From assembly GCA_903926935.1 (NCBI GenBank), contig CAIYLB010000076.1:1-54731 (forward strand): a stretch of DNA of 54,731 bases, in the 5' to 3' direction. Each line of letters opens with the position of its first letter. Position 1 is the first letter of the stretch. The notes below the pieces were generated by a model. It had not been told where the DNA came from, ran no database searches, and saw nothing but the letters and a program-made list of their open reading frames with translations. This DNA is from an uncultured Pseudomonadota bacterium. Its GTDB lineage: Bacteria > Pseudomonadota > Gammaproteobacteria > Burkholderiales > Methylophilaceae. Positions 11,887-33,930 of this stretch are shown here, in pieces. The position numbers were made by a program, and so were the translations under genes.

Positions 11887-12219
11887 TCAATGGAATAAAG
11901 ACTTTGAGAATAAATTAATCACGACAATTCCAGAGACTATAAGCAACAAACCTATAGTTGCGCCCAAATCTAGTGGCTCCTTAAAATATAACCAGGATAT
12001 AAGTGCTACAAAGCCAACAGCAACGCCAGTCCATATAGCATATGCAATCCCCACTGGTATGTACTTAAGTGTTCTTGATAAAAAATAAATTCCGGTGGTG
12101 TACCCTAAAATAACTAAAATAGAGGGCCTTAAGTTTGTAAATCCAACCGTGTACTTTAACGCCAAAGTGGCTATTATTTCGCAAACAATAGCGACAATGA
12201 GGAATAACCACTTTTCCAT
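11887..12219 (-). CDS. SMR-family small multidrug/cation exporter (EmrE/Qac-like)
   Basis: 110 aa, four TMs, conserved TM1 Glu (AIVCEIIAT), KYTVGF and GIAYAIWTG. Confidence 0.9.
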   Translation of the reverse strand: MEKWLFLIVAIVCEIIATLALKYTVGFTNLRPSILVILGYTTGIYFLSRTLKYIPVGIAYAIWTGVAVGFVALISWLYFKEPLDLGATIGLLLIVSGIVVINLFSKSLFH

Positions 12220-13049: not shown

Positions 13050-14051
13050 CTAGATTAACAATTCATTTATTGCAGCGTTAATAAACGCACTTTCATTTGC
13101 AAATCTACCGGGCGCACCAGCGCAGTGGCCCGCCGATGAAAGTATTGGTCTTAATTCTGAATTCGGGCTTAGTGCGGCCTCAATGCTATTTTCTGCAAGA
13201 GTGAAATACTGATCATTATCGCAGGGCATGATAATTGTTTTAGCAGTCACTTGTGATAAAGCTAGCGCTAAGTCACCTTTAAATTTGTCATGAGCGCTGA
13301 CATCTGCATGCTGCCAAGTCCATATCTTAGTTAAAAGATCATTGGCATCCCAGCCCAAATGATCTTGCTCCCAATCTTCTAGTAATGCGTTTATAGAATC
13401 GAAACCGATCTCTTTATAACGCTCCTCGCGAAAGAATTCAGCTGAATAGGCCCAAGGAGCATAGGCTCTGCCAAATGCCCTGAGTCCGGCTGTTGGTTGA
13501 TTGATGTAATTACCATCGGCATAATCAACATCAGCTTGCAAAACGGATCTGATACTTTTGATAAAAATTTCGTTGTATGGCCAACAGCGCGTTGCGCCAC
13601 AAATCGGCAACAAGTTTTTAATCATTTCCGGATATAAAACTGCCCAATGCCAAACCTGCACGGCACCCATTGACCAACCTAATGCCAGCTTAATCTCGTT
13701 AACACCTAAAGCCTTTAACAAGGAGTGCTGGCATACAACGTTATCATAGACTGTGATGTTAGGAAAGCTACCAGCTGGATATCGATCTAAGGAATTACTA
13801 GGTGAAATAGATTGTGCGTTTCCAATCAAATTAGGCGTCACAATAAACCACTTATTGGGGTCTAGCGCCTGACCTTCCCCAATGATGCGAGCGTTTGATA
13901 AGTGATTGCCAGTGTAATAAGTTGGAAAAAGAATGCAGTTGTCTCCAGCTGCATTCAATCTACCCCAAGTAGCGAAAGTAAGCCAAGCATCATGGAGCAC
14001 TTCTCCACTTTGAAGGGTTATATCGCCAATTGAGAATTTTTGAATATGCAT
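13050..14051 (-). CDS. MetX/homoserine acetyltransferase-fold alpha/beta hydrolase
   Basis: TWGRLNAAGDN, GWSMG nucleophile elbow, C-terminal AGH; function probably not methionine synthesis. Confidence 0.8.
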   Translation of the reverse strand: MHIQKFSIGDITLQSGEVLHDAWLTFATWGRLNAAGDNCILFPTYYTGNHLSNARIIGEGQALDPNKWFIVTPNLIGNAQSISPSNSLDRYPAGSFPNITVYDNVVCQHSLLKALGVNEIKLALGWSMGAVQVWHWAVLYPEMIKNLLPICGATRCWPYNEIFIKSIRSVLQADVDYADGNYINQPTAGLRAFGRAYAPWAYSAEFFREERYKEIGFDSINALLEDWEQDHLGWDANDLLTKIWTWQHADVSAHDKFKGDLALALSQVTAKTIIMPCDNDQYFTLAENSIEAALSPNSELRPILSSAGHCAGAPGRFANESAFINAAINELLI

Positions 14052-14055
14052 AAAT

Positions 14056-15426
14056 TTAGAATAGTTTTAAATAACGGTCTTTTTCCCAATCACTCACATG
14101 ATTGTTGTAGCGTAGCCACTCTTCCGTTTTGTAATCTATCCAAGTTGCATGCATACTATTACCAAAAACCTGCTTCGCTAAAGGATCAAGCTTAAACATA
14201 TCAATAGCTTCTTTTAAAGACTGTGGCAGCATCTTGATGTTTAACGCCTCAAGCTCCTCAGTCGTTTTAAGATACATGTTTTCCGTATGCGGTTCGCCTG
14301 GGTCTAATTGCTGCTCTATGCCTTCAAGCCCAGCCGCCAATACCAATGCAGCTCCTAAATATGGATTACACGCACTATCAGCCGCTCGCAATTCAATGCG
14401 ACCGCCGCCCATCGGGATGCGTAGCGTGTTGGTACGATTATTGTCACCATAGCAGGCGAACACTGGGGCCCAAGTAAATCCAGACATACTACCTTTCAAT
14501 ACAAGTCGTTTGTAGCTATTCACCGTCGGAGCTACTGCGGCGCAAATTGCAGGCAAATGCTTCAACACACCAGCCATAAATTGATAACCTAATTTAGATA
14601 AGTTGCAGCCACGTGGGTCATTAGCTTCTTCAAATAGGTTTTTTCCGGTGACCTTATCTGCCAGTGACATGTTGAAGTGAGCTCCACTTCCGGCACGGTC
14701 ACCAAAAGGTTTAGGCATAAATGTCGCAAATCCGCCATGACGGCGTGCGACTTCATTGGCCATTAAGCGGAAAAATACAAAATTATCGGCCATGGTTAAG
14801 GCATCAAAATATTTGAAGTCGATTTCAAATTGTCCAATACCATCTTCGTGGTCTAATGAATAAACATCCCAGCCTAGTTCATTCATATATTTGACTAGTT
14901 CACGCATCCAATCCATATTATCTAGCAGGCGCGCGACGTCATAAGCAGGTTTATCTAAATGCTTGCGTGTTGATAGCGGTGAATAGCCACCATCTGCATC
15001 ATCCTTTAATACAAAAAACTCCGCCTCTATACCCAAATTCATGCGAAAACCCATCGCATCGGCCTTTGCTAATACATTTTTTAAAATAGTACGGCTGCAA
15101 GCCTCGAATGGCTCACCTTTAGTCCATAAGTCACTGGCAAACCAAGCAATTTCTTTATCCCAGGGCAATATCTTGCAGGAGCCTGGGTCAGGATGTGCGG
15201 CCACCTCCTCATCGCTTACATCTTGTGGCACACCTTCTAAAGCTGCACCAGTACATAATTCCGATCCTGACATCATGCGTTTATAATGCGCAATCGGCAC
15301 CATTTTTGACTTAGATACGCCATGTATGTCAACATAGCTTGCCAACATAAATTCAACCCCAGCCGCTTGCATTGCCTCTACATCGTTGCCGATATTGGCA
15401 GTTTCTGCTTGTTTTGTAACTTCCAT
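14056..15426 (-). CDS. GlnT-type (type III) glutamate--amine ligase, glutamine synthetase superfamily
   Basis: GIEAEFF, DHEDGIGQFE, FMPKP, GSGAHFN, NSYKRL, NNRT and ELR motifs. Confidence 0.85.
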   Translation of the reverse strand: MEVTKQAETANIGNDVEAMQAAGVEFMLASYVDIHGVSKSKMVPIAHYKRMMSGSELCTGAALEGVPQDVSDEEVAAHPDPGSCKILPWDKEIAWFASDLWTKGEPFEACSRTILKNVLAKADAMGFRMNLGIEAEFFVLKDDADGGYSPLSTRKHLDKPAYDVARLLDNMDWMRELVKYMNELGWDVYSLDHEDGIGQFEIDFKYFDALTMADNFVFFRLMANEVARRHGGFATFMPKPFGDRAGSGAHFNMSLADKVTGKNLFEEANDPRGCNLSKLGYQFMAGVLKHLPAICAAVAPTVNSYKRLVLKGSMSGFTWAPVFACYGDNNRTNTLRIPMGGGRIELRAADSACNPYLGAALVLAAGLEGIEQQLDPGEPHTENMYLKTTEELEALNIKMLPQSLKEAIDMFKLDPLAKQVFGNSMHATWIDYKTEEWLRYNNHVSDWEKDRYLKLF

Positions 15427-15641: not shown

Positions 15642-16640
15642 TTAATAGGCTTTATACAATGAAGGGTCAATGGCCTTGTCAATGTTTTGCGGACCTTTGT
15701 AAATGGCATTTTTTACATTAAAGTCATCAGAAATTTTAGATGAACCATAAATTGACTTTAAGCCATCCGCTTTCACAAACACGGCTTTACCTTCTTTTAA
15801 AGAGAGCAACCTAGTGCCTTTTAAGAACGTTTGATACTCAGTAGGTTTGAGGCCAACACGTGCAGACATGATTTTCACAGCATCTGCCTGAGTTTTAGGG
15901 TCATTAATATAGTCAACAACTTTACCCCAAACACCGACCACTTTTTTCCAATCCTCTTTACGATTTGAGAAGCTAGATGGACTCACTGTAAATACATCAT
16001 AAATTAGGCCCGGCGCTTGAGCTGAGGTGAAGATAGGTTTTGATCCATGAACAAGTTTTAAAGCTTGTCCTGCACTTGGTTGAAACACACCAATTGCCGC
16101 CAAATCGCCAGAAGCTAGTGCTTGTGGGGTGTCGTTGATTTTAACGTTCAAAAGCGTAACATCAGATTCTTTCATGCCAGCTTTCTCCAAACCATAGAGA
16201 AGTAAAAGATGATCAACGATGCCTAATTCCGTACCAACTTTCTTACCTTTTAAGTCTTTAAAACTTTCGACACCAGGCTTACCAATGATCATATCGTTAC
16301 CATTAGAGTAATCTGTAATCAGAACGATGACATTTTTACCCCCACCCGCACCCATGACCAAGGCGTCACCATTAGTCACGCCTACGCTGTCAAGCTTGCC
16401 GGCACTAAAAGCCTCGATTGAAGCGCCATAATCAAACCATTCAAATTTAACGTCAACGCCGGCTTCTTTAAACCAACCTTTCTCGATGGCAACCTGCCAT
16501 GCAACAAAACCTGGCCAATCGCTGTAACCTATTTTTAATGGTTGTGCGGCTTGGCTAATATTGCTAAAAGCAAAGGCTAAAGGAACAGCTGCTGTAATAA
16601 TCAGTTTTTTGAAACTTAAAACTTTTAAACGGGATTTCAT
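15642..16640 (-). CDS. ABC transporter solute-binding protein, SsuA/TauA/NMT1 type
   Basis: Signal peptide ending SQA; IGYSDWPG and DYSNGND motifs; AGGAG RBS. Confidence 0.88.
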   Translation of the reverse strand: MKSRLKVLSFKKLIITAAVPLAFAFSNISQAAQPLKIGYSDWPGFVAWQVAIEKGWFKEAGVDVKFEWFDYGASIEAFSAGKLDSVGVTNGDALVMGAGGGKNVIVLITDYSNGNDMIIGKPGVESFKDLKGKKVGTELGIVDHLLLLYGLEKAGMKESDVTLLNVKINDTPQALASGDLAAIGVFQPSAGQALKLVHGSKPIFTSAQAPGLIYDVFTVSPSSFSNRKEDWKKVVGVWGKVVDYINDPKTQADAVKIMSARVGLKPTEYQTFLKGTRLLSLKEGKAVFVKADGLKSIYGSSKISDDFNVKNAIYKGPQNIDKAIDPSLYKAY

Positions 16641-16710: not shown

Positions 16711-17421
16711 TTAAACCAATGAAAAGTTTAATATTTGTCCCTCGCGAAAAGGCAAGGTAGAGTGATTAATTCTGCCGTGCGACGCGTCTACGATGTCACC
16801 AAACGAAATTTCAAAATCCAGCCAATTAAGTATGTCCAATAGACTTTGATTTGGGCTATCAATTAACGCCAATAAACTGCTCGCTTCTGGTAGATTTGAA
16901 CTACGTGGCCGAATAAAGGCAAACTGATTACCTGCTTTTAAAAGACGTGCGATCACCACAACACCATTTGAATCGAGGCTATTAATTTGGTGCGTACTCA
17001 CGTTGATGTGAGTACCTGCTATTTTGTCCCAAACCTCAAAGTAGACACTCTCTACGCCCGTCTCTAATAGTTTGTTTTCACCACTAAATACCATCTCACC
17101 AATATCCGGAACACCATTATCTGGCTGTAAATCTAGTTCACGGTGCCAATTACATATGTTGCCGCTCACTTCTGTTACGCCTGCAAAACCCTGCTGCGTC
17201 GCCAACCAACGCAATTGTTCCGTAGAGCAATCTTGCAAGCAGGTACAGTCTGAAAAATCTGGCCGTAATGCAGGAATACGTATATCTATATGTTGATTAT
17301 CGGCCTGTAACCAAAATACCAACGAAGTCGTATCCTGACTACCGTTCTGCTCAAGTAAACTTCTACGCCATACACCTAGGTAAGAAGCCGGCACCGCTAT
17401 CAATTTATTTAGTGGGTTCAT
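16711..17421 (-). CDS. Uncharacterised protein, Hri1-like by pattern; paralog of 20596..21567
   Basis: GVWRR..DTTSLVFWLQ...IDIRIP...GFAG...W.RELD..P...DIG...E.G...YFEVW; ATG at 17421 overlaps the upstream stop. Confidence 0.7.
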   Translation of the reverse strand: MNPLNKLIAVPASYLGVWRRSLLEQNGSQDTTSLVFWLQADNQHIDIRIPALRPDFSDCTCLQDCSTEQLRWLATQQGFAGVTEVSGNICNWHRELDLQPDNGVPDIGEMVFSGENKLLETGVESVYFEVWDKIAGTHINVSTHQINSLDSNGVVVIARLLKAGNQFAFIRPRSSNLPEASSLLALIDSPNQSLLDILNWLDFEISFGDIVDASHGRINHSTLPFREGQILNFSLV

Positions 17422-18200
17422 AGGTGATACTCGGGGAAAACCTTTAATGTTCTCCAAAAAGCCATATCGTGGTTTGGCCATAACTCAGCTTTTTCAGACT
17501 TAGCCAGAGATTTTAGCTTGCGAATACTAGCAATCGCCAACTCCGTTTGACCTTGCCAACAGTTTCCTGGGGCGATTTCATCGACTATATTTTCAGTTAA
17601 ATCGGCAGCATCACCGGCCAAGATAATAGGTGCGCCAGTGGGCATTTCTATCCACAATGACATATGACCCGCGGTATGCCCTGGACTAGCTATTGCGTGC
17701 ACACCTGCCGTTAAATTATATTCGCCCTTTTTCACTTTCCAGTTTGCTTGAGCAACGATTTCATTATCAAAATAGGCTAAATCATCACGAGGATTCGCTG
17801 AGGCCAACTCGTCGGCTTGAACATGCACCTCCGCCCCACATAAATCACATAAGCCGCCGGCATGATCAAAGTGCAAATGCCCTAAGAACACAACATCAAT
17901 ATCCTGTACCGATAATCCTAGACGCGCTAGTTGGCGTGGCAAGCGTTGCGACTCATCCATATCGGGTGCGCCAAAACTAAATACTTCTGGGTTATAGTAT
18001 TTTTCTCGCTGTGAGGCATCTGCTATTTTATTGTAGTCACATCCAACATCGTACAAAATACGACCATTTCTGGTCTCGATTAAGTAGGCTAAAATTGGCG
18101 CTTCTATCATCTGTCCAGCCCCGCGATTATGCGTAGATAAAGATTTATCATAACGGTGGGTAGCGGTTAAAATCGGCCAAACTTTGGTAACGGCAGTCAT
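17418..18200 (-). CDS. Metallo-beta-lactamase-fold hydrolase, AHL-lactonase-like family
   Basis: HLHFDH, PGHTAGH, AGDA and PNHD metal ligands. Confidence 0.88.
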   Translation of the reverse strand: MTAVTKVWPILTATHRYDKSLSTHNRGAGQMIEAPILAYLIETRNGRILYDVGCDYNKIADASQREKYYNPEVFSFGAPDMDESQRLPRQLARLGLSVQDIDVVFLGHLHFDHAGGLCDLCGAEVHVQADELASANPRDDLAYFDNEIVAQANWKVKKGEYNLTAGVHAIASPGHTAGHMSLWIEMPTGAPIILAGDAADLTENIVDEIAPGNCWQGQTELAIASIRKLKSLAKSEKAELWPNHDMAFWRTLKVFPEYHL

Positions 18201-18210
18201 GGTTTTATTC

Positions 18211-19248
18211 TCACAGTGCCGTCAAGAAAGAAACACCCGCAGCACCAATAAAAGCATTCGCACTAGCATTGCTGATAACTCCATAATCATCACTTTGAAG
18301 TCTAGTAATCCTATGGCAATGGTAGGCGCTCATAAGCTTGATCATTGGAATGACAGGCAACAAGTCCAAATCACCATACAACTTTTTATGAAGAGCTGGC
18401 AATTGATGCCAAGGCACTTTTGGTTTTTCGTGATGCGCGTTGTGATAGGGGAAATTTAAAAATAATAGGTTTAACCAAGGATATTTCAGTGAGGCTAAAT
18501 TTGAATAGGTATTCGCTTGTTCGTAAGCACGATCACGAAGCTTTCCGTCTTTAACTTTACCGCCGAACCGCGCAAGATCAGATTCTAAAAAAACATCATA
18601 TGTATGTTGAAAAGCATCAGCAAATCTAAGCGCAGTGAGCATGACGCAGTAAGCTAGCAGATATAGTAGCCATGCTTTAACAGACACCCATGCCATAAGA
18701 ACAAATATGGATGCTCTAAGAGAAAAAATTATAATTAATCTTAAGCGCTTATGGTGCCATTCTGATTTAATAAATGGCAAGATAATGACTAAAAAGTGCA
18801 TGAGTATTTCAATCGCTGGAATATACATCCACTCCAAAGCTTTGATAAGGTTTCTAGCCGCCGTCGGCATATCGCGCATCACATGCTGCACATTAAAAGT
18901 AAGTACATCCGCACGATCAGCATGATGATGCATGTGTTTATCACGAATCTCTTTGAAGGTGCTGTAGCAACTACCATTCACCCATGACAAGACAGTGCCC
19001 CACGTTTTATTTGTTTTAGGTGATTTAAACAAACTCCAATGTGATAACTCATGCAGTAAATAAGCACTAATAATCAATGCCTCAGCAGTGACTAGTACAC
19101 CAGCAAAATTAACTAGCCAATGTTCTGAAAAAAGCATAAAAATACCGATCGGGTAACCAAATAATACGAATGAGAATACCGCAGAATTTTTAAGCAGATC
19201 GAGGTTAAGCTTACGCTCAAGCACTTCTATAGATTTGATAACAGACAT
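18211..19248 (-). CDS. Membrane di-iron fatty-acid-desaturase-superfamily enzyme
   Basis: Three His boxes HELSH, HMHHH and HNAHH, plus QH; hydrophobic segments. ATG at 19248 preferred, since the track's TTG start lies inside the riboswitch expression platform. Confidence 0.85.
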   Translation of the reverse strand: MSVIKSIEVLERKLNLDLLKNSAVFSFVLFGYPIGIFMLFSEHWLVNFAGVLVTAEALIISAYLLHELSHWSLFKSPKTNKTWGTVLSWVNGSCYSTFKEIRDKHMHHHADRADVLTFNVQHVMRDMPTAARNLIKALEWMYIPAIEILMHFLVIILPFIKSEWHHKRLRLIIIFSLRASIFVLMAWVSVKAWLLYLLAYCVMLTALRFADAFQHTYDVFLESDLARFGGKVKDGKLRDRAYEQANTYSNLASLKYPWLNLLFLNFPYHNAHHEKPKVPWHQLPALHKKLYGDLDLLPVIPMIKLMSAYHCHRITRLQSDDYGVISNASANAFIGAAGVSFLTAL

Positions 19249-19266
19249 AATATATCCACAGTATTT

Positions 19267-19310
19267 AAAAGCCAAAAAGACAATATTAGAATTCAGTCTC
19301 CCGGGCTTTT
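19267..19310 (-). terminator. Putative riboswitch expression platform (terminator competing with the aptamer 3' end)
   Basis: AAAAGCC-C-GGGAGAC of the aptamer can pair with downstream GUCUUUU-U-GGCUUUU. Confidence 0.7.
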
Positions 19311-19392
19311 ATCCCTCCGTGTAGCCAGTTTTAATTGGCCGAGAACTCTTGGACCAGACATTTTTATAAAAAAACCGGAACCCTAGCTCTCT
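19298..19392 (-). ncRNA. Guanidine-I (ykkC-yxkD) riboswitch aptamer
   Basis: Minus strand GAGAGCUAGGGUUCCGG...GUCUGGUCCAAGAGUUCUC-GGCCA..UGGCU-ACACGGAGGGAUAAAAGCCCGGGAG; P1 closes GAGAGC/GUUCUC. Confidence 0.95.
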
Positions 19393-19444
19393 TTTTTAAA
19401 GCAGGTAGATGTGAGTGTTAAATTGAACTACCTAAATTAATATT

Positions 19445-19710: not shown

Positions 19711-20595
19711 ATGCAATCAACAGCGAAATTTTGGCAAAACTGGCAAGAGTTCAGGTCTGCTCAACAAGAAATTATTCTACCGGCTGGCCAAGTCGCGCAC
19801 ACACAAGTTTCTATCCGCTATATAGACATAGGTGTCGACATACACGGCACAATTCTTTTGATGCACGGCATACCAACATGGGGATTTATCTACCATGAAG
19901 TAATTCCACTATTGGTAAAATCTGGCTACCGTGTGATCGCTCCTGACTTTTTAGGTCACGGATGGTCTGATCGTAGAGACTGTTTTGACCGATCTTTTCA
20001 AGATCAAGCAAAGATGATCGTTGCATTATTATCGGCAATCAACATAAAAAGTGTGCATGTTGTTGGGCACGATACTGGAGGTGCAGTAGCACTTATTCTA
20101 GCAATAGAACACCAACAATATGTGCGCCATCTTATAATTTCAAACGCAGTTTGCTACGATCGTTTTGATGATGATATGCTAGATTTTGGCCACCCACTCA
20201 GATGGAAAGCGCGCCCATTGAAAGACCTTGTGGATACTCTAGAACTTAGCCTTGCCATGGGAGTTTCTAACAAGAATCGACTTACGCCAGAGTTTAGACA
20301 AGGCATCATTGCGCCTTGGGCGAGTGAGGAAGGAAAGTTGAGCCTGCTTCGAAATGCATCAGCCCTTAATGCAAACCAGACCATGGCACTGGTCGATCGC
20401 CATGGCAAAATTACAGCTAAGACGATGATTCTTTGGGGAATGGATGACCCTTGGCAGAAATCAGAAGATGGCCAACAACTCGCTCAAGAAATTCCAGGAG
20501 CCATATTCAAAGGCATTTATGGCGCTTCGCATTGGCTACAACAAGACTCACCTGCAGAGTTTACTGAGGCACTTCTGGATTTTTTTCATCCTTAA
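19711..20595 (+). CDS. Alpha/beta hydrolase, epoxide hydrolase/haloalkane dehalogenase-like
   Basis: HGIP, PDFLGHGWS, GHDTGG (Asp nucleophile), WGMDD and SHW. Confidence 0.85.
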   Translation: MQSTAKFWQNWQEFRSAQQEIILPAGQVAHTQVSIRYIDIGVDIHGTILLMHGIPTWGFIYHEVIPLLVKSGYRVIAPDFLGHGWSDRRDCFDRSFQDQAKMIVALLSAINIKSVHVVGHDTGGAVALILAIEHQQYVRHLIISNAVCYDRFDDDMLDFGHPLRWKARPLKDLVDTLELSLAMGVSNKNRLTPEFRQGIIAPWASEEGKLSLLRNASALNANQTMALVDRHGKITAKTMILWGMDDPWQKSEDGQQLAQEIPGAIFKGIYGASHWLQQDSPAEFTEALLDFFHP

Positions 20596-21567
20596 CTAAA
20601 GTACTTTTGTATAGCGTGACATAGTCGATGATTCACGTTCAAACCAAGATTCTGCCTCATGAGTAAAAGCGGTCGACTGGCTAAAGTCAACATGGGATTC
20701 AAGCGTATCAATAGAAAAAATTCGTTCGCAGGGCACGCCTGCAACGGTTAGTTTTTGGCGAACAACATCCATTACTGCCGAATTTCCATACTGATATTGA
20801 GTTATGCACTCAAATCCTTCTAAGCAAAATAAATCTTGCCCCATCCGGGATGCTTGTGTTGAATGGATCACGTTAAAACCTTGCTGAACCGAGCCTTTAG
20901 CCACGGAGGTCTCAAAGTTTAATAAACTTGTCAAAAGTCCAATATCACCACTAGCATTTGCGACCAAACTCTTAAGCGTGGCCCCTGGCACCTTATTAAA
21001 AAATTCTGGCCCACGTCCTAACACCAATCCAGCATAGTCTCCGCAGACTATTAATCCACCACCGCTATGTCGAACTTCTCCGGTGGAAAGATTACGCTCT
21101 TCTATCAGATTTAGCCCCACCAACGGCCCCGAACTAGAAGGCTGTAAACGCCAATCTTCAACATAAGCATCGCTAGGGCAAAACTCAACCATACAATTAC
21201 CAACACGCTTTAATATGGCCGGCTCGGTCCAGCGATTGTGCAGTTGGAATGAAGCATTAGCTTCCTGCCAACTTAATATTTCGCCATCCCAGTCTGAAGC
21301 CGCTAACCAGCCCTCATAGTTGGCAACTTGCTGTAACTCATCTTCAGAATACTCAAGCAAAGGCTTCGCTACTACTTGGTCAGCATCACGAGGCAAACGA
21401 AGGTCAATGCTAAAGTTACGACTCTGTAACCAGCACACATGTGTTTTAAGGTCAGTCATACCATTAGCAAAACTAATCGAATAACGCTTAAAGAAACCCA
21501 GCATCCAATCAGGTACACTATGCTCAGGGCGTTTACCATGTAGCTCGACTAGTTCTTGCAGCTTCAT
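20596..21567 (-). CDS. Uncharacterised protein coupled to the 2OG dioxygenase; candidate hydroxymethyl-guanidine lyase
   Basis: Start overlaps the dioxygenase stop; VCWLQ...IDLRLP and YVEDW motifs shared with 16711..17421. Function is inference. Confidence 0.65.
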   Translation of the reverse strand: MKLQELVELHGKRPEHSVPDWMLGFFKRYSISFANGMTDLKTHVCWLQSRNFSIDLRLPRDADQVVAKPLLEYSEDELQQVANYEGWLAASDWDGEILSWQEANASFQLHNRWTEPAILKRVGNCMVEFCPSDAYVEDWRLQPSSSGPLVGLNLIEERNLSTGEVRHSGGGLIVCGDYAGLVLGRGPEFFNKVPGATLKSLVANASGDIGLLTSLLNFETSVAKGSVQQGFNVIHSTQASRMGQDLFCLEGFECITQYQYGNSAVMDVVRQKLTVAGVPCERIFSIDTLESHVDFSQSTAFTHEAESWFERESSTMSRYTKVL

Positions 21568-22637
21568 TTAGTTAGCTCCACAGATTCTAAATGAGATTGC
21601 GGCTTATGCCCAAAAGATGACAACCCTTTTGCGCCATCGGGTAATACCAAGGCACCATTAGCTAGACGATTTTTGAGATAGGCAAAGGTTTGCATAGTTT
21701 GTGCATATAGATGCTCCCCACATACTATCGGTTTATAGTGCGAAGGCTTATCTGTCGATAAAAGTGATTCTATAGGCTTTATCACCGTGTCATAATCACA
21801 TGCGCAGAACAATGGAAACGAGTAGCGCTCCTGCTTTACTTTTCTTACCCTATGCATGGTTGCGACGAAATATCCATTGCTTAACACTTCCAGCATGTCA
21901 CCAATATTGATAACAAAAGCTCCACTTACAACTGGCGCATCGATCCACTCCATGGCGCCATTCTGGACCTCCAAACCATCCTCGGTGGCTAGCAGAATGG
22001 TGAAACATTCGTAATCTGTGTGGGCTCCTATTCCAGGCCTATCTTCTGGGGCCGCTGGACTAAAAGGATAATGCACAAGTCGCAATTGACTTGGTGGCGC
22101 AGTGACTTTATTGGTGAAATAATCTTCTGGCAGATTCAAGGCCAAAGCAAAGCCTCGGAATAGCGCATTACTTAACGCAAAAACTGCATCGTAATAGGCC
22201 TTGACATCTTCTTTAAATCTAGGGAAATCTGGCCAGCGATTTGGGCCTAACATTGGTCTACGTACTTCTGACTGCTTAAGATCAAAACCAACATCGTAAG
22301 CTTCTTTGAGATCTGGCTTGGCTGAAAGATACTGCTCTTCGCCCTCAGGGACATAGCCACTGTGATTGGAAGAGTTGCCTATATAATCCTGCATCTTTTG
22401 CTCATAGGTCTGAGAAAAATATTCACGAGTGCGTGTCTTGAGATTTTCAATCAAATCTTGCTGCACACCATGTCCTACAATGTAAAGAAAACCTGCATCA
22501 CGTGCTGCATTTCCAAGTGCTTTTGCAGCTTCCTTACGTTCGGTAAGATCGGATGAAAATAATAAAGAGATATCTATCAGTGGTAGTTTCTTAAAGGCTG
22601 TATGTGGGCGAACCGGACTAATCTGAACTTCAGACAT
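21564..22637 (-). CDS. 2-oxoglutarate/Fe(II) dioxygenase, IPNS-like family
   Basis: LPLIDIS, GFLYIVGHG, HTD...H facial triad (HTDYEC, MHRV) and RYS; ATG at 22637 after an AAAGGA RBS. Confidence 0.92.
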   Translation of the reverse strand: MSEVQISPVRPHTAFKKLPLIDISLLFSSDLTERKEAAKALGNAARDAGFLYIVGHGVQQDLIENLKTRTREYFSQTYEQKMQDYIGNSSNHSGYVPEGEEQYLSAKPDLKEAYDVGFDLKQSEVRRPMLGPNRWPDFPRFKEDVKAYYDAVFALSNALFRGFALALNLPEDYFTNKVTAPPSQLRLVHYPFSPAAPEDRPGIGAHTDYECFTILLATEDGLEVQNGAMEWIDAPVVSGAFVINIGDMLEVLSNGYFVATMHRVRKVKQERYSFPLFCACDYDTVIKPIESLLSTDKPSHYKPIVCGEHLYAQTMQTFAYLKNRLANGALVLPDGAKGLSSFGHKPQSHLESVELTK

Positions 22638-22658
22638 GCTAAATCCTTTCAAAAGTAT

Positions 22659-22805: not shown

Positions 22806-23146
22806 AACATATAGCAGACTGCTAGATGTGAATTTTCGTTTTTATTTTGTAGTGGGCAAAACACTTCATTTAAGGCGAATTAGCCCTTATGATTAGAATA
22901 GCGCGAGTAAATCTTACTATTCATACTAGGAGCAGCATATTCTATTCATTAATTTCTTGGTACATTAGCATGCGTGACGCACCAAATTGAAGCCATCTTG
23001 GGGATTCATCTGAGAAGAGCTAACCGCAAAAACATACCAATCGAGCCAGCATTTGGCTTGCCCCTCAAATAGATAAGCTAAAGCTCATTATGCACACGTC
23101 AAAGCTGATTATTCGTATGTGAAAGTGACAATTAAAGAGTGAGAGT

Positions 23147-23485
23147 GAAGCTGGCCGATAAGCCGGGTTCTGTAGGCCTTATTACTAAGGCTGACAGTCA
23201 TTCATCTAGGCGCACAATTACTTGTACGCTCAAGCAACCTACCCGCTGGCAGCGCGAACCACGCCTTATTAACCGAAGTTAAAGCGCCAGCCTATTTGGT
23301 CTTGCTGCGAATGGAGGTTACCGCGTTTCACCGTAACTTAATACGCTCGTCTCTGTGGCCCTATTCCGCGCCTTATACTTGGTTGCCCAAGCTTTCAACG
23401 TACGGCCGTTAGCCGTCATCCCGCTCTATGCAGCCCGGACTTTCCTCCCCTCACTTACGTGAGCGGCGACTGTCTAGCCAGCTTC
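23147..23485 (-). ncRNA. rnpB: RNase P RNA, class A
   Basis: GAAGCUGGC ends pair; GAGGAAAGUCCGGGC and ACAGAACCCGGCUUA universal motifs. Confidence 0.98.
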
Positions 23486-32274: not shown

Positions 32275-33930
32275 ATGCGCTTTCAACTTGATCATGACTG
32301 GCAAGGCAACATGTCGACCCCACGCGCACGCGTCGGTGACAGTGCTAAAACTCGTCTTTTACTTGCCTTATGCGTCATTTGGATTTTATTGGGCTTAATC
32401 GTCCATGCGCCATGGAAGCCGCTTGAATCAACCGGTATTAGTATCGTTAAGTCTATACTAGATGGAGGTAGCTTAATTGCGCCACTCGCGAATGGTGAAA
32501 CCACTTTAGAGGCGCCCCCTTTATACTATTTAACAGCTGCCGCCAGCGCCAAAATTTTCTCACCTGTGTTAAATATACATGATGGCGCTAGACTAGGTAA
32601 CGCCATTTGGCTATCACTCATCCTATTAATGGTGGGCATGACGGGCAGAGAGCTATGGGGCCGCGGTATTGGGCGCCATTCAACGTTCATTATGATAGGC
32701 ACAATCGGCTTAGTGCTGAGTGCCCACAGCTTAATCAATGACGTTGCCAGCCTTGCTTGTATCGCTGCAGGCTTTTACGCTTTAGCTCTTTGTAAACGCA
32801 GACCGTGGCGAGCAAGCGCCCTTTTAGGCATTGCTATGGCGTTTGGCTTTTTATCTGACGGCCTAATGCCGCCAGCCATATTAATAAGCACAGCAATAAT
32901 CTTGCTCATATCTTTTAGTGCTTGGCGCACACGAAGCTTTATTACCGTCGTTAGCTTCGCTTTTCTAATCGCGTTACCACTCATTTCTACATGGTTGTTA
33001 TTGATGCATTATCAGTCACCGGCATTGCTCGGAAGTTGGTGGCAAACCTCCTTAGCTAGCTACCATCAACAGAATTATTTTTATTTTTTACGCACTTTAA
33101 TTTGGTATGCATGGCCTGCCCTACCGCTGGCGTTGCTAGGCTTATGGCGCTTTCGCAGCCAGTTACTCATTAAGCCAAAATTTCAACTGATCATTAGCTT
33201 TTTTGTCTGCTGCATATTCTTCCTAGGTATTGGTGCCAGCGCAAAAGATATTAATGCACTACCCCTACTGGTGCCTTTAGTGGCGCTTGCGGCAGGCAGC
33301 GTTGAACATCTTAAACGAGGCTTAGCCGCTGCTTTAAATTGGTTTGGTGTCATGCTATTCGGTTTAATTGGTGTTTTAATTTGGCTAGGTTGGTTTGCCA
33401 TGATGACAGGCTATCCAGCTAGAATTAAAACTAGAATGCAGTTTTTATCTGGCACAAATGACATTCACTTTAGCTGGGTTGCGCTGATTATTGCACTGGC
33501 GATTACTGTCATTTGGCTGTCCGTATGTATACGCGCAAAGCAAACCAATAAATCTACAGTGACTAATTGGGCTGTAGGTATGACTTTCGGCTGGGGATTA
33601 CTGATGACTCTTTGGCTACCATTACTAGATTCTGCTAAAAGCTATCAGCCTGTTTTTACAAGTCTAAAGAATGCATCGCCTAAGAATTACATGTGCATGA
33701 GTAGTTTAAATGTTGCTCAACCGCAACGTTTACTTCTCAACTATTACACCAATATCGAATTAAAGCCATTTGAAAAATCACAGCAACTCAACTGTGATTT
33801 GTATTTGCTGCAGGATGTAAAAGGAATTGGCATAATGAATCCAGGCCAAGAATGGCAACTGCTCTGGACGGGCAGAAGGACTGCTGATAGGAAAGAAAGC
33901 TTTAGATTATTTAAACATATTAAGCAGTAA
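32275..33930 (+). CDS. ArnT/PMT-like (GT-C) membrane glycosyltransferase
   Basis: Multi-TM protein with PWKP.E, PPLYY and WYAWPALP. Confidence 0.8.
   Translation: MRFQLDHDWQGNMSTPRARVGDSAKTRLLLALCVIWILLGLIVHAPWKPLESTGISIVKSILDGGSLIAPLANGETTLEAPPLYYLTAAASAKIFSPVLNIHDGARLGNAIWLSLILLMVGMTGRELWGRGIGRHSTFIMIGTIGLVLSAHSLINDVASLACIAAGFYALALCKRRPWRASALLGIAMAFGFLSDGLMPPAILISTAIILLISFSAWRTRSFITVVSFAFLIALPLISTWLLLMHYQSPALLGSWWQTSLASYHQQNYFYFLRTLIWYAWPALPLALLGLWRFRSQLLIKPKFQLIISFFVCCIFFLGIGASAKDINALPLLVPLVALAAGSVEHLKRGLAAALNWFGVMLFGLIGVLIWLGWFAMMTGYPARIKTRMQFLSGTNDIHFSWVALIIALAITVIWLSVCIRAKQTNKSTVTNWAVGMTFGWGLLMTLWLPLLDSAKSYQPVFTSLKNASPKNYMCMSSLNVAQPQRLLLNYYTNIELKPFEKSQQLNCDLYLLQDVKGIGIMNPGQEWQLLWTGRRTADRKESFRLFKHIKQ

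Follow-up and report, generated by a model that had tools for sequence, protein, structure and literature searches.

The closest described counterpart of the locus analysed here is the MgdH/MgdL system of Vreelandella boliviensis, in which MgdH is a soluble 2OG/Fe(II) enzyme and MgdL is a narrowly specific lyase of N-(hydroxymethyl)guanidine that requires residues D49 and R51 (PMC12508155). Guanidine is also released after C5 or C6 hydroxylation of arginine or homoarginine by other enzyme classes (PMC12508155). GntB, the L-arginine gamma-hydroxylase of the guanitoxin pathway (NF041365), hydroxylates a soluble guanidino compound and is called transmembrane in bioRxiv 2023.03.21.533663; the review PMC12371840 calls it alpha-KG-dependent, which conflicts with that description. 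The origin of free guanidine and the roles of many unassigned genes under guanidine riboswitches are stated to be open questions in the recent reviews PMC12186494 and PMC12623156.

The window, which is the whole stretch of 54,731 nucleotides that was analysed, carries a guanidine-I riboswitch followed directly by a gene for a putative membrane oxygenase and by a series of further genes in the same direction. The features, in order of transcription, are:

19296..19397, minus strand: guanidine-I riboswitch aptamer (Rfam RF00442, 95.4 bits, E 3.9e-16)
19266..19311, minus strand: competing terminator-like stem using the aptamer 3' end, the putative expression platform (-16.1 kcal/mol, z -4.29)
18211..19248, minus strand: putative membrane di-iron (FA_desaturase superfamily) oxygenase of 345 aa, predicted N-alkylguanidine hydroxylase (PF00487 and fold model)
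19039..19053, minus strand: His box 1, H66-x3-H70 (invariant in the oxygenase alignment; 101 of 102 locus proteins)
18922..18936, minus strand: His box 2, H105-x2-HH109, comprising H105, H108 and H109 (102 of 102)
18808..18834, minus strand: E139-W140...E147 where a hydrophobic helix begins, putative cation-binding residues proposed from conservation
18604..18618, minus strand: fourth metal-site motif, D211-x3-H215 (D211 in 101 and H215 in 102 of 102)
18430..18444, minus strand: His box 3, H269-x2-HH273, comprising H269, H272 and H273 (102 of 102)
17418..18200, minus strand: metallo-beta-lactamase-fold (MBL) hydrolase, AHL-lactonase/4-pyridoxolactonase-like, 10 nt past the oxygenase stop
16711..17421, minus strand: MgdL-like N-(hydroxymethyl)guanidine lyase homologue, its start overlapping the hydrolase stop (ATGA), two genes downstream of the oxygenase
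15642..16640, minus strand: ABC substrate-binding protein, NMT1/SsuA-like by profile matches, with no adjacent permease
14056..15426, minus strand: GlnT/GmaS-like gamma-glutamylamide synthetase paralogue (TIGR03105, 550 bits against a cut-off of 469.6)
13050..14051, minus strand: PRK07581 MetX-like alpha/beta hydrolase (NF005757, 403 bits against a cut-off of 332)

In a covariance-model search the aptamer matched RF00442 over the full model (positions 1-107), at 95.4 bits, well above the gathering score of 63 bits, which bears out the near-canonical aptamer described in the first-pass annotation; its 5' end at 19397 lies 5 nt past 19392, the end given there. The genome holds two guanidine-I aptamers, of which this is one. 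The competing stem (19311-19266) pairs the aptamer 3' end with downstream sequence over 15 bp, and equal stability was reached in 0 of 200 shuffles; in most of the related riboswitches examined a hairpin is formed from the same 3' aptamer bases with differing partner sequences. The stem at 19266-19311 was not called in a scan for consensus terminators, and its U-tail consists of four U's only, all within the predicted stem, so that it is terminator-like rather than a proven terminator; the competing stem noted on first reading is confirmed. Known RF00442 (ykkC-yxkD) riboswitches are resembled in the full-length match and in a stem set against the 3' aptamer end, whereas the first gene here is not a carboxylase, a Gdx/SugE exporter or an ABC subunit. 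Guanidine is predicted to switch the downstream gene, and since methylguanidine was not a ligand of the one guanidine-I riboswitch assayed in PMC12508155, control would probably be exerted by the product, guanidine.

The oxygenase reading frame begins with ATG; a 354-aa version with a TTG start at 19275 was rejected, as this start lies inside the stem and the nearest database homologues are also 345 aa long. Pfam FA_desaturase was the only Pfam family matched (105.3 bits against a cut-off of 29.7). All three His boxes that had been claimed for the first gene were found, and with the D211-x3-H215 motif they bring the total to nine His, each conserved in 101-102 of the 102 locus proteins; a di-iron centre activating O2 is predicted from this ligand conservation. 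E139 is kept in 102, W140 in 100 and an acidic residue (E/D) at position 147 in 100 of the 102 locus proteins, the last in only 40 of 74 distant representatives. The C-terminal tail GVSFLT is invariant, and hydrophobic stretches lie at residues 21-42, 44-66, 138-163 and 168-210. The family comprises 1529 database matches at E<=0.001, many of them named 'fatty acid desaturase'; a plasmid search gave one distant match, and a distant homologue in Gloeothece lies within a small-molecule cluster of biosynthetic appearance. A tree of this oxygenase family alone, built by a quick method on 103 rows after exclusion of short matches and one stop-containing row, placed a second paralogous branch (support 99), which occurs in two-copy operons and precedes a short-chain dehydrogenase (SDR) and a creatininase in L117 and L118.

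A structure model of the oxygenase (pLDDT 82, pTM 0.85) matched 8xks_K, which we take to be a desaturase-like subunit (Z 18.6), FtAlkB (Z 11.7; rmsd 5.3, 261 aligned) and SCD1 (Z 5.9; rmsd 4.9, 177 aligned); these were the only three chains at Z>=5, and all were read as an AlkB/SCD-type fold. Foldseek with the same model gave no match at E<=0.001, the top four being 8xks_K, 8xqw_M and two AlkB entries, a sequence search of the PDB found no relative of the oxygenase, and the ESM Atlas returned FA_desaturase clusters only. AlkB enzymes have nine His at the metal site and a carboxylate close by, and carry an NYxEH or NYxEHYG motif. The window protein shares the fold and such a site with AlkB/XylM but is 12% identical, has D-x3-H (DAFQH) at the NYxEH(YG) position, and belongs to a family in which no AlkB model was among the 8 families matched by 34 members. 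Its operon also differs in having no linked rubredoxin, ferredoxin or reductase, none of which was conserved in the 99 homologous loci described below, where motif matches were scattered and most were read as shadow frames. With SCD1, DesA and CrtW/CrtR it shares His-box spacing, PF00487 and, for SCD1, the fold; it differs from them in equivalog scores that are all below one tenth of the cut-off (DesA 21.2 bits against 500; DesB matched by 2 of 34 members at E ~0.002), in acidic residues in a transmembrane helix, in the GVSFLT tail, in a catabolic gene context and in an accessory distribution. GntB was matched weakly but nearly over its full length by 17 of the 34 members, with a best E of 1.2e-6 and a best single score of 31.3 bits against a cut-off of 380, the window oxygenase itself giving no match at E<=0.01; GntB differs further in being biosynthetic rather than catabolic and in hydroxylating carbon away from nitrogen. 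The assignment to a superfamily holding both AlkB/XylM monooxygenases and lipid desaturases is upheld by PF00487 and fold, although AlkB/XylM is not the nearest precedent, GntB and the logic of MgdH/MgdL being closer.

The MgdL homologue of the window is 41% identical (E 5e-51) to the corresponding protein of locus L056, whose visible N-terminal stretch equals the published MgdL alignment entry A0A3M8QP86 (by eye, ~75 residues); MgdL itself was compared with the window protein by motif only. The catalytic Asp-x-Arg is kept as D46-x-R48 and is invariant in an alignment of MgdL-like proteins, and the homologue is predicted to cleave N-(hydroxymethyl)guanidine. Two proteins of the MgdL fold are encoded in the window. 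A 68% identical paralogue of the ABC binding protein, accompanied by a permease and an ATPase, lies under the second guanidine-I riboswitch on contig C33; no relative of the window binding protein was found by sequence search of the PDB. The GlnT/GmaS-like gene follows a gap of 215 nt, which leaves its co-transcription uncertain, and its product is 39% identical to that of the gmaS-like gene on C154 of this genome.

For comparison, 99 homologous loci were collected, namely the best 80 by similarity and 19 evenly drawn; the best 80 are similarity-ranked and mutually related and are therefore not independent. A guanidine-I riboswitch lies directly upstream of the oxygenase in 8 of the 99 and one gene upstream in 31 (39/99 in total); in 5 genomes without one within 8 kb the sole aptamer lies 10-13 kb away, in 4 cases heading along the same strand. 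Among 399 evenly drawn Gammaproteobacteria genomes, guanidine carboxylase (Gca) was present in 8 of 12 carriers of the oxygenase against 22 of 387 others, and was absent from the remaining 4 carriers. MgdL-like genes occur in 56/99 loci, the D-x-R being present in 52 of these 56 and in the window, and an uncharacterised TIM barrel occurs in 25/99, the two never together. From the side of the lyase, the oxygenase family is also present in 5 of 8 MgdL carriers of the same draw, in 4 of the 5 within one operon, but in only 7 of the 391 other genomes; of the 3 MgdL carriers that do not have it, one (L139) shows a 2OG enzyme adjoining MgdL in the V. boliviensis layout. Other partners vary more: MBL hydrolases are found in 68/99 loci, a creatininase with an SDR in 26/99 (the same SDR in 26 of 26), and a BiuH-like hydrolase, a possible guanylurea hydrolase that is nearest to biuret hydrolase but under its cut-off (261 vs 370), in 45/99. 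The creatininase reaches 375.7 bits against the TIGR04448 cut-off of 235 and E 2e-79 to solved creatinine amidohydrolases, whereas the TIM barrel gave one weak row only in a PDB sequence search (Art22, E 0.015) and falls among sugar-isomerase-like clusters in the ESM Atlas. Units free of hydrolases consist of oxygenase, MgdL and EamA (L119, and L120 near a contig end) or of a guanidine-II riboswitch, oxygenase, TIM barrel and EamA (L123). Neither lyase candidate was found in 18/99 loci, many of which stop at contig ends, the long ones being L010, L060, L078, L096, L116, L117 and L126; 8 of the 19 evenly drawn loci, including the sister branch L094, L095, L097, L125 and L126, have no riboswitch, Gca or MgdL nearby. 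Across many families the gene keeps company with catabolic hydrolases, importers and a lyase.

A riboswitch directly upstream and an MgdL relative beside the gene in many bacteria make it likely that small methylated guanidines, and not fats, are oxidised. The suggestion in the first-pass annotation that the gene encodes an oxygenase of a guanidine compound rather than a lipid desaturase is independently supported by the MgdL-type lyase in the same operon and in 56/99 loci, by the linkage to riboswitch and Gca, by the patchy distribution and by a separate delta-9-type desaturase. Within this supported class of soluble-guanidine oxygenases, the reading we favour, at slightly under even confidence, is a di-iron N-methyl hydroxylase that acts on methylguanidine or on a closely related N-methyl guanidino compound. 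Substrate would be imported by the binding protein together with the permease under the second riboswitch, and the lactonase-like hydrolase would likely free it from an acylated or cyclic precursor. With O2 and electrons from an unlinked housekeeping carrier, the di-iron enzyme would yield N-(hydroxymethyl)guanidine, an unusually stable intermediate, which the MgdL homologue would split into guanidine and formaldehyde; guanidine could then enter the carboxylase/CgdAB/AtzF route of this genome as nitrogen, and formaldehyde could enter methylotrophy. Released guanidine would bind the aptamer, disfavour the competing stem and raise transcription, amounting to induction by product.

This scheme resembles MgdH/MgdL in the guanidine-riboswitch operon, the link to the carboxylase pathway, the ABC importer and the pairing of an oxygenase with a D-x-R-keeping MgdL-family lyase. 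It differs in that the oxygenase is of a membrane di-iron type with no homology to MgdH and would need an external reductant in place of 2-oxoglutarate, and in that an MBL hydrolase is usually, and a creatininase, SDR or BiuH-like hydrolase often, present, the TIM barrel replacing MgdL in 25 loci. The 2OG enzyme of operon B, to which the window enzyme had been proposed as a functional analogue, is 53% identical to the 2OG enzyme of a gca-2OG-mgdL layout, which makes the analogy plausible. An MgdH-like 2OG enzyme co-occurs with the oxygenase in this genome and in 3 of the best 80 loci, however, which points to different or overlapping substrates and not to a simple swap.

That apparent redundancy counts against an N-methyl hydroxylase, as do the absence of a conserved electron carrier, the loci without lyase, riboswitch or Gca (Gca missing in 4 of 12 carriers) and the creatininase with SDR (26 loci) and BiuH-like hydrolase (45 loci), which point to larger substrates. 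The main alternative, which we consider unlikely, makes use of these partners: hydroxylation would fall on the N-CH2 carbon, with creatinine, creatine or guanidinoacetate as substrate, in an oxidative creatinine-to-guanidine route, creatinine giving creatol or creatine a hemiaminal losing glyoxylate, with the SDR and the creatininase-like and lactonase-like hydrolases processing the ring and the lyase releasing methylguanidine or guanidine. Creatone intermediates would be part of such a creatinine oxidation. Oxidation of creatinine to creatol and methylguanidine is given in PMC3775425, and the proposal draws further on the above-cut-off creatininase, always with the same SDR, on the paralogous branch that precedes this pair and on the frequency of MBL hydrolases. 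Against it, this genome (95% complete) has no match to the creatininase, the BiuH-like hydrolase or the TIM barrel, a true creatininase is absent from 37 of the 56 MgdL loci, and the characterised MgdL is specific for the N-hydroxymethyl compound. In a distinctly improbable reading the substrate is another soluble guanidino compound (arginine, agmatine, a cyclic guanidine or one with a longer alkyl chain). Hydroxylation at the position adjoining the guanidine nitrogen or, as with GntB, on the chain would give guanidine and an aldehyde or amine, the amine being captured by the GlnT paralogue; such hemiaminals decay spontaneously (PMC12508155), however, so that a dedicated MgdL would be unneeded. 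This reading is favoured by the resemblance to GntB, itself a precedent for a transmembrane arginine hydroxylase that also lends support to an N-methyl hydroxylase, but the match lies far under the cut-off; guanidine release from arginine and homoarginine elsewhere, variable operon tails with GlnT, MetX-like hydrolase and SDRs, two binding-protein paralogues in the genome and the Gloeothece cluster are also consistent with it.

An ordinary acyl-lipid desaturase or hydroxylase, remodelling membranes under guanidinium stress or standing behind the riboswitch by chance, is very improbable. The Pfam match, the database names and 8xks_K as best structural match agree with it, as does the missing electron carrier, since lipid desaturases commonly have no linked one; but the DesA score is about 21 bits, catabolic hydrolases, lyase and importers surround the gene in many families, and the absence of the gene from all 24 congeners drawn, together with the separate delta-9-type desaturase, makes a lipid role unlikely. 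We give equally little credence to a real riboswitch that does not control the gene as drawn (because the terminator is weak, control is translational or the gene has its own promoter) or to a non-catalytic or sensing protein: the short U-tail and the uncalled stem would fit the former, but the aptamer-to-ATG distance is 47 nt, the same direct arrangement recurs in 8 other loci, and the nine His are conserved.

A literature search found no paper tying this oxygenase family to guanidine riboswitches, although gene-association tables and supplements of earlier surveys may list the gene under such riboswitches; in the guanidine papers checked for the word, 'desaturase' referred to NapI. It is possible, though doubtful, that the protein founds a family of N-dealkylases of the membrane di-iron type. 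Paired either with MgdL or with the metal-binding TIM barrel, which is unrelated and would be a second hemiaminal lyase, and preceded by an SDR-creatininase module, these would convert creatinine and methylated guanidines oxidatively to free guanidine by a pathway not yet described; that pathway would be common in nature as an origin of the guanidine sensed by riboswitches. The favoured reading, if right, would reveal a new microbial way of mining methylated guanidines for nitrogen and assign a function to the family of 1529 matches; membrane di-iron chemistry would gain the N-demethylation of a small cation, and a second hemiaminal lyase candidate would be put forward. It would be relevant to nitrogen cycling and to what becomes of creatinine and methylated guanidines, including metformin-related ones, in water. 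Carriers of the cluster include culturable Halopseudomonas, Thiomonas, Acidithiobacillus and Azotobacter. Farther along the window, an SMR gene (11887-12219) was left out of the operon; by its scores it belongs with Qac/EmrE and not with Gdx.

The riboswitch-headed desaturase-like gene is a real feature of the window, and is listed here with the features around it.

Features of the riboswitch operon and the rest of the window
19296-19397, minus strand: guanidine-I aptamer, full-length Rfam match (95.4 bits, cut-off 63)
19311-19266, minus strand: competing 15-bp stem of the aptamer 3' bases and the sequence after them (-16.1 kcal/mol, z -4.29)
18211-19248, minus strand: putative oxygenase ORF (345 aa)
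19711-20595, plus strand: alpha/beta hydrolase, pointing away from the riboswitch operon (divergent) and towards the 2OG operon (convergent)
20596-22652, minus strand: 2OG operon, 2OG/Fe(II) dioxygenase and then a distant MgdL-fold protein of 323 aa (sequence comparison)
22764-22749 and about 22671-22660, minus strand: a pair of GG-ACGA-CC hairpins spaced ~80 nt, the latter directly preceding the 2OG gene Shine-Dalgarno
23143-23485, minus strand: RNase P class A RNA, ordinary
32275-33930, plus strand: 551-aa ORF lacking a Pfam match

The Rfam match bears out the near-canonical guanidine-I aptamer described in the first-pass annotation; one other such aptamer is present in the genome, on contig C33. 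The aptamer lies 47 nt from the ATG (19248) of the oxygenase ORF. The competing terminator-like stem proposed there stood in part: an overlapping stem is present, but its U-tail is short and no terminator was called at this position by consensus scan, so its function is presumptive. In related riboswitches the same 3' aptamer bases form a hairpin with differing partner sequences.

The oxygenase ORF matched PF00487 (105.3 bits), and the His boxes that had been read in this first gene were confirmed, with nine His (66, 70, 105, 108, 109, 215, 269, 272, 273) invariant in an alignment of 34 homologues. Also invariant in this alignment were Asp211, four residues ahead of His215, E139, W140, E147, M150 and the C-terminal GVSFLT tail. 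Among 102 locus proteins, 101-102 retain each of the His and 100 have E or D at 147; in distant full-length representatives (26-49% identity, n=74) the His persist and E or D at 147 drops to 40/74, marking it as a trait of the closer family. E147 lies within a hydrophobic helix, which suits a predicted cation-binding role. An AlphaFold model (pLDDT 82, pTM 0.85) matched three chains only at Z≥5: 8xks_K (Z 18.6, rmsd 4.2, 289 aligned), FtAlkB (Z 11.7, rmsd 5.3, 261 aligned) and SCD1 (Z 5.9, rmsd 4.9, 177 aligned). No curated family fits the protein; members matched the models for CrtW (34/34), DesA (23/34), GntB (17/34) and CrtR (14/34), with the bit scores shown all below a tenth of cut-off. 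One database search returned 1529 family matches, and the family forms 220 clusters (50% identity, E≤1e-30). Close relatives are in Methylotenera and other Methylophilaceae, and the gene was absent from 24 of 24 congeners drawn. The same genome carries a separate delta-9-type desaturase gene (type judged by motifs).

Conservation of the guanidine context was followed in the best 80 of 207 genome loci plus 19 more taken from two even draws, each of 400 genomes, using a riboswitch motif pattern that agreed with Rfam in 25/25 loci checked. Across the 99 loci, guanidine-I was directly upstream of the oxygenase gene in 8, one gene upstream in 31 and further away in 1. A riboswitch or guanidine carboxylase route genes (gca/cgd/atzF) occurred in 70 of the best 80 loci, or 76 once MgdL was counted; any of the three occurred in 10/19 evenly drawn loci, or 11/19 counting guanidine-II directly upstream in L123. 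Five genomes lacking guanidine-I within 8 kb each had one aptamer and one oxygenase gene 10-13 kb apart (same strand in 4/5). In the class-wide draw, guanidine/urea carboxylase was present in 8/12 carrier genomes vs 22/387 others (Fisher p ~2e-7) and an MgdL homologue in 5/12 vs 3/387 (p ~5e-7), p values that kinship inflates, even with 10 family codes represented among the 12 carriers; Gca was missing in 4/12. The linkage is not family-wide, since a sister branch (L094, L095, L097, L125, L126) had no riboswitch, gca or MgdL within ~10 kb (L126 by motif pattern only) and the 37% homologue of Gloeothece sits in an unrelated small-molecule cluster. Elsewhere in the five sister-branch genomes, carboxylase was clear in three, below cut-off in one and absent in one. 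The Gloeothece verrucosa cluster (plasmid NC_014533.1, L102:11899-18210) opens with the distant oxygenase relative, includes an ectoine-synthase-like protein, GNAT, tryptophan halogenase and HpaB, and looks like an uncharacterised biosynthetic cluster. No conserved electron carrier was found in the examined loci. This, the unlinked relatives and the carriers missing Gca count against the proposed role.

Downstream of the oxygenase, after a 10-nt gap, lies an AHL-lactonase-like metallo-beta-lactamase-fold (MBL) hydrolase, whose stop is overlapped by the start of an MgdL-like gene (ATGA); an NMT1-type binding protein, a 215-nt gap, a TIGR03105 GlnT/GmaS paralogue and a PRK07581 hydrolase follow. 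The latter two (13050-15426) are closest to the L094 pair (61%, 45%) adjoining a sister-branch oxygenase, so the operon looks mosaic. A gmaS-like gene also occurs in this genome amid methylamine-pathway-type genes (names read from sequences). The MgdL-like protein, with only a weak HRI1 match in Pfam, has the motifs of the MgdL alignment as far as available (PMC12508155, supplement 3). A protein of Acidithiobacillus sulfuriphilus (L056), two genes past a desaturase-like gene, shares 41% identity with it (E 5e-51), and the visible stretch of the L056 protein is identical to entry A0A3M8QP86 in the accessible part of the same alignment. D-x-R is present in the window protein and in 52/56 MgdL-bearing loci.

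The system nearest in logic is MgdH/MgdL of Vreelandella boliviensis. According to the accessible portion of PMC12508155, MgdH hydroxylates methylguanidine to a hemiaminal (half-life > 1 h), which the narrowly specific MgdL cleaves by means of D49 and R51. Of the riboswitches in that study, guanidine-I bound guanidine and not methylguanidine, and guanidine-II bound both. The oxygenase here is non-homologous to MgdH, and by enzyme type the nearest precedent is the arginine hydroxylase GntB (bioRxiv 2023.03.21.533663, as far as available), on whose class one review (PMC12371840) disagrees. The pathway is of known kind, its novelty being the non-homologous oxygenase. No description of a riboswitch-controlled desaturase-like enzyme turned up in full-text literature searches, though supplements of primary papers may list the association.

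Of the 99 loci, 56 have an MgdL-like gene and 25 a xylose-isomerase-like TIM barrel, never together; the 18 loci with neither include many at contig ends. This swap is most simply explained if the product of the oxygenase requires a lyase, which two unrelated proteins can supply, and the TIM barrel is a candidate second hemiaminal lyase. A quick tree of the oxygenase family implies 8 changes of the TIM label, and well-supported branches force no fewer than 4 of them; L122 (MgdL) and L123 (TIM), for example, come from the same family. Glu, Asp, His and Glu residues of the TIM barrel are invariant, and we take them to be of the metal-binding kind in this fold. Examples of the barrel (PF01261) are L123:8647-9486, L094:8551-9414 and L032:5884-6711, with 22 more loci. 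Where MgdL homologues occur without an oxygenase of this family, one (L139) adjoins a 2OG enzyme, arranged as in V. boliviensis, and another (L140) is near a Rieske-type ORF, judged by its sequence start, possibly a third oxygenase type partnered with MgdL. The surrounding L140:5230-11742 holds ORFs with Rieske oxygenase-, amine dehydrogenase subunit-, agmatinase- and nitrilase-like starts.

The substrate is very probably a soluble guanidino compound, and N-methyl hydroxylation by the oxygenase is the favoured, still tentative, prediction. The methylguanidine reading draws on the MgdL partner, on minimal oxygenase, lyase and EamA units (L119, L120, L123) and on a host that is likely methylotrophic and able to use formaldehyde. 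Creatinine or creatine is the less likely substrate of the two. In its favour, creatininase exceeded the TIGR04448 cut-off in 26 loci, with the same SDR type alongside in 26/26, a paralogous oxygenase branch occurs in two-copy operons and adjoining SDR and creatininase, and oxidation of creatinine through creatol to methylguanidine is known (PMC3775425, in the part available). Against it, the creatininase module is missing from the window's genome. Both readings would be compatible if SDR, creatininase and MBL converted oxidised creatinine, presumably through creatone intermediates, to methylguanidine, which the putative di-iron enzyme would then demethylate. Some other soluble guanidino compound is slightly less likely still.

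The creatininases (L072:11409-12188 and 25 more loci) have residues near the substrate site unlike those of the solved enzyme, and no creatinase family was among the recurring neighbours in their operons. Another member of the creatininase family, scoring below cut-off (L002:12762-14900, also in 10 further loci), lies in guanidine operons with a GlnT/GmaS-like synthetase partner in 11/11; speculatively, its gene could be for a methylguanidine amidinohydrolase, with methylamine captured.

The alpha/beta hydrolase at 19711-20595 had no counterpart in the best 80 of the 207 loci. Judged by sequence, the GG-ACGA-CC hairpins may be a long-linker guanidine-II riboswitch missed by Rfam; the whole-region fold was not significant (z 0.64). 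The 323-aa MgdL-fold protein keeps D-x-R and is 24-31% identical to MgdL-type proteins, so that it and the 2OG enzyme may form a second module for demethylation or dealkylation. The desaturase-like enzyme had been proposed as a functional analogue of this 2OG enzyme, in favour of which the latter is 53% identical to that of the gca-2OG-mgdL locus L139, but the presence of both oxygenases in one genome suggests that their substrates are different or overlapping.
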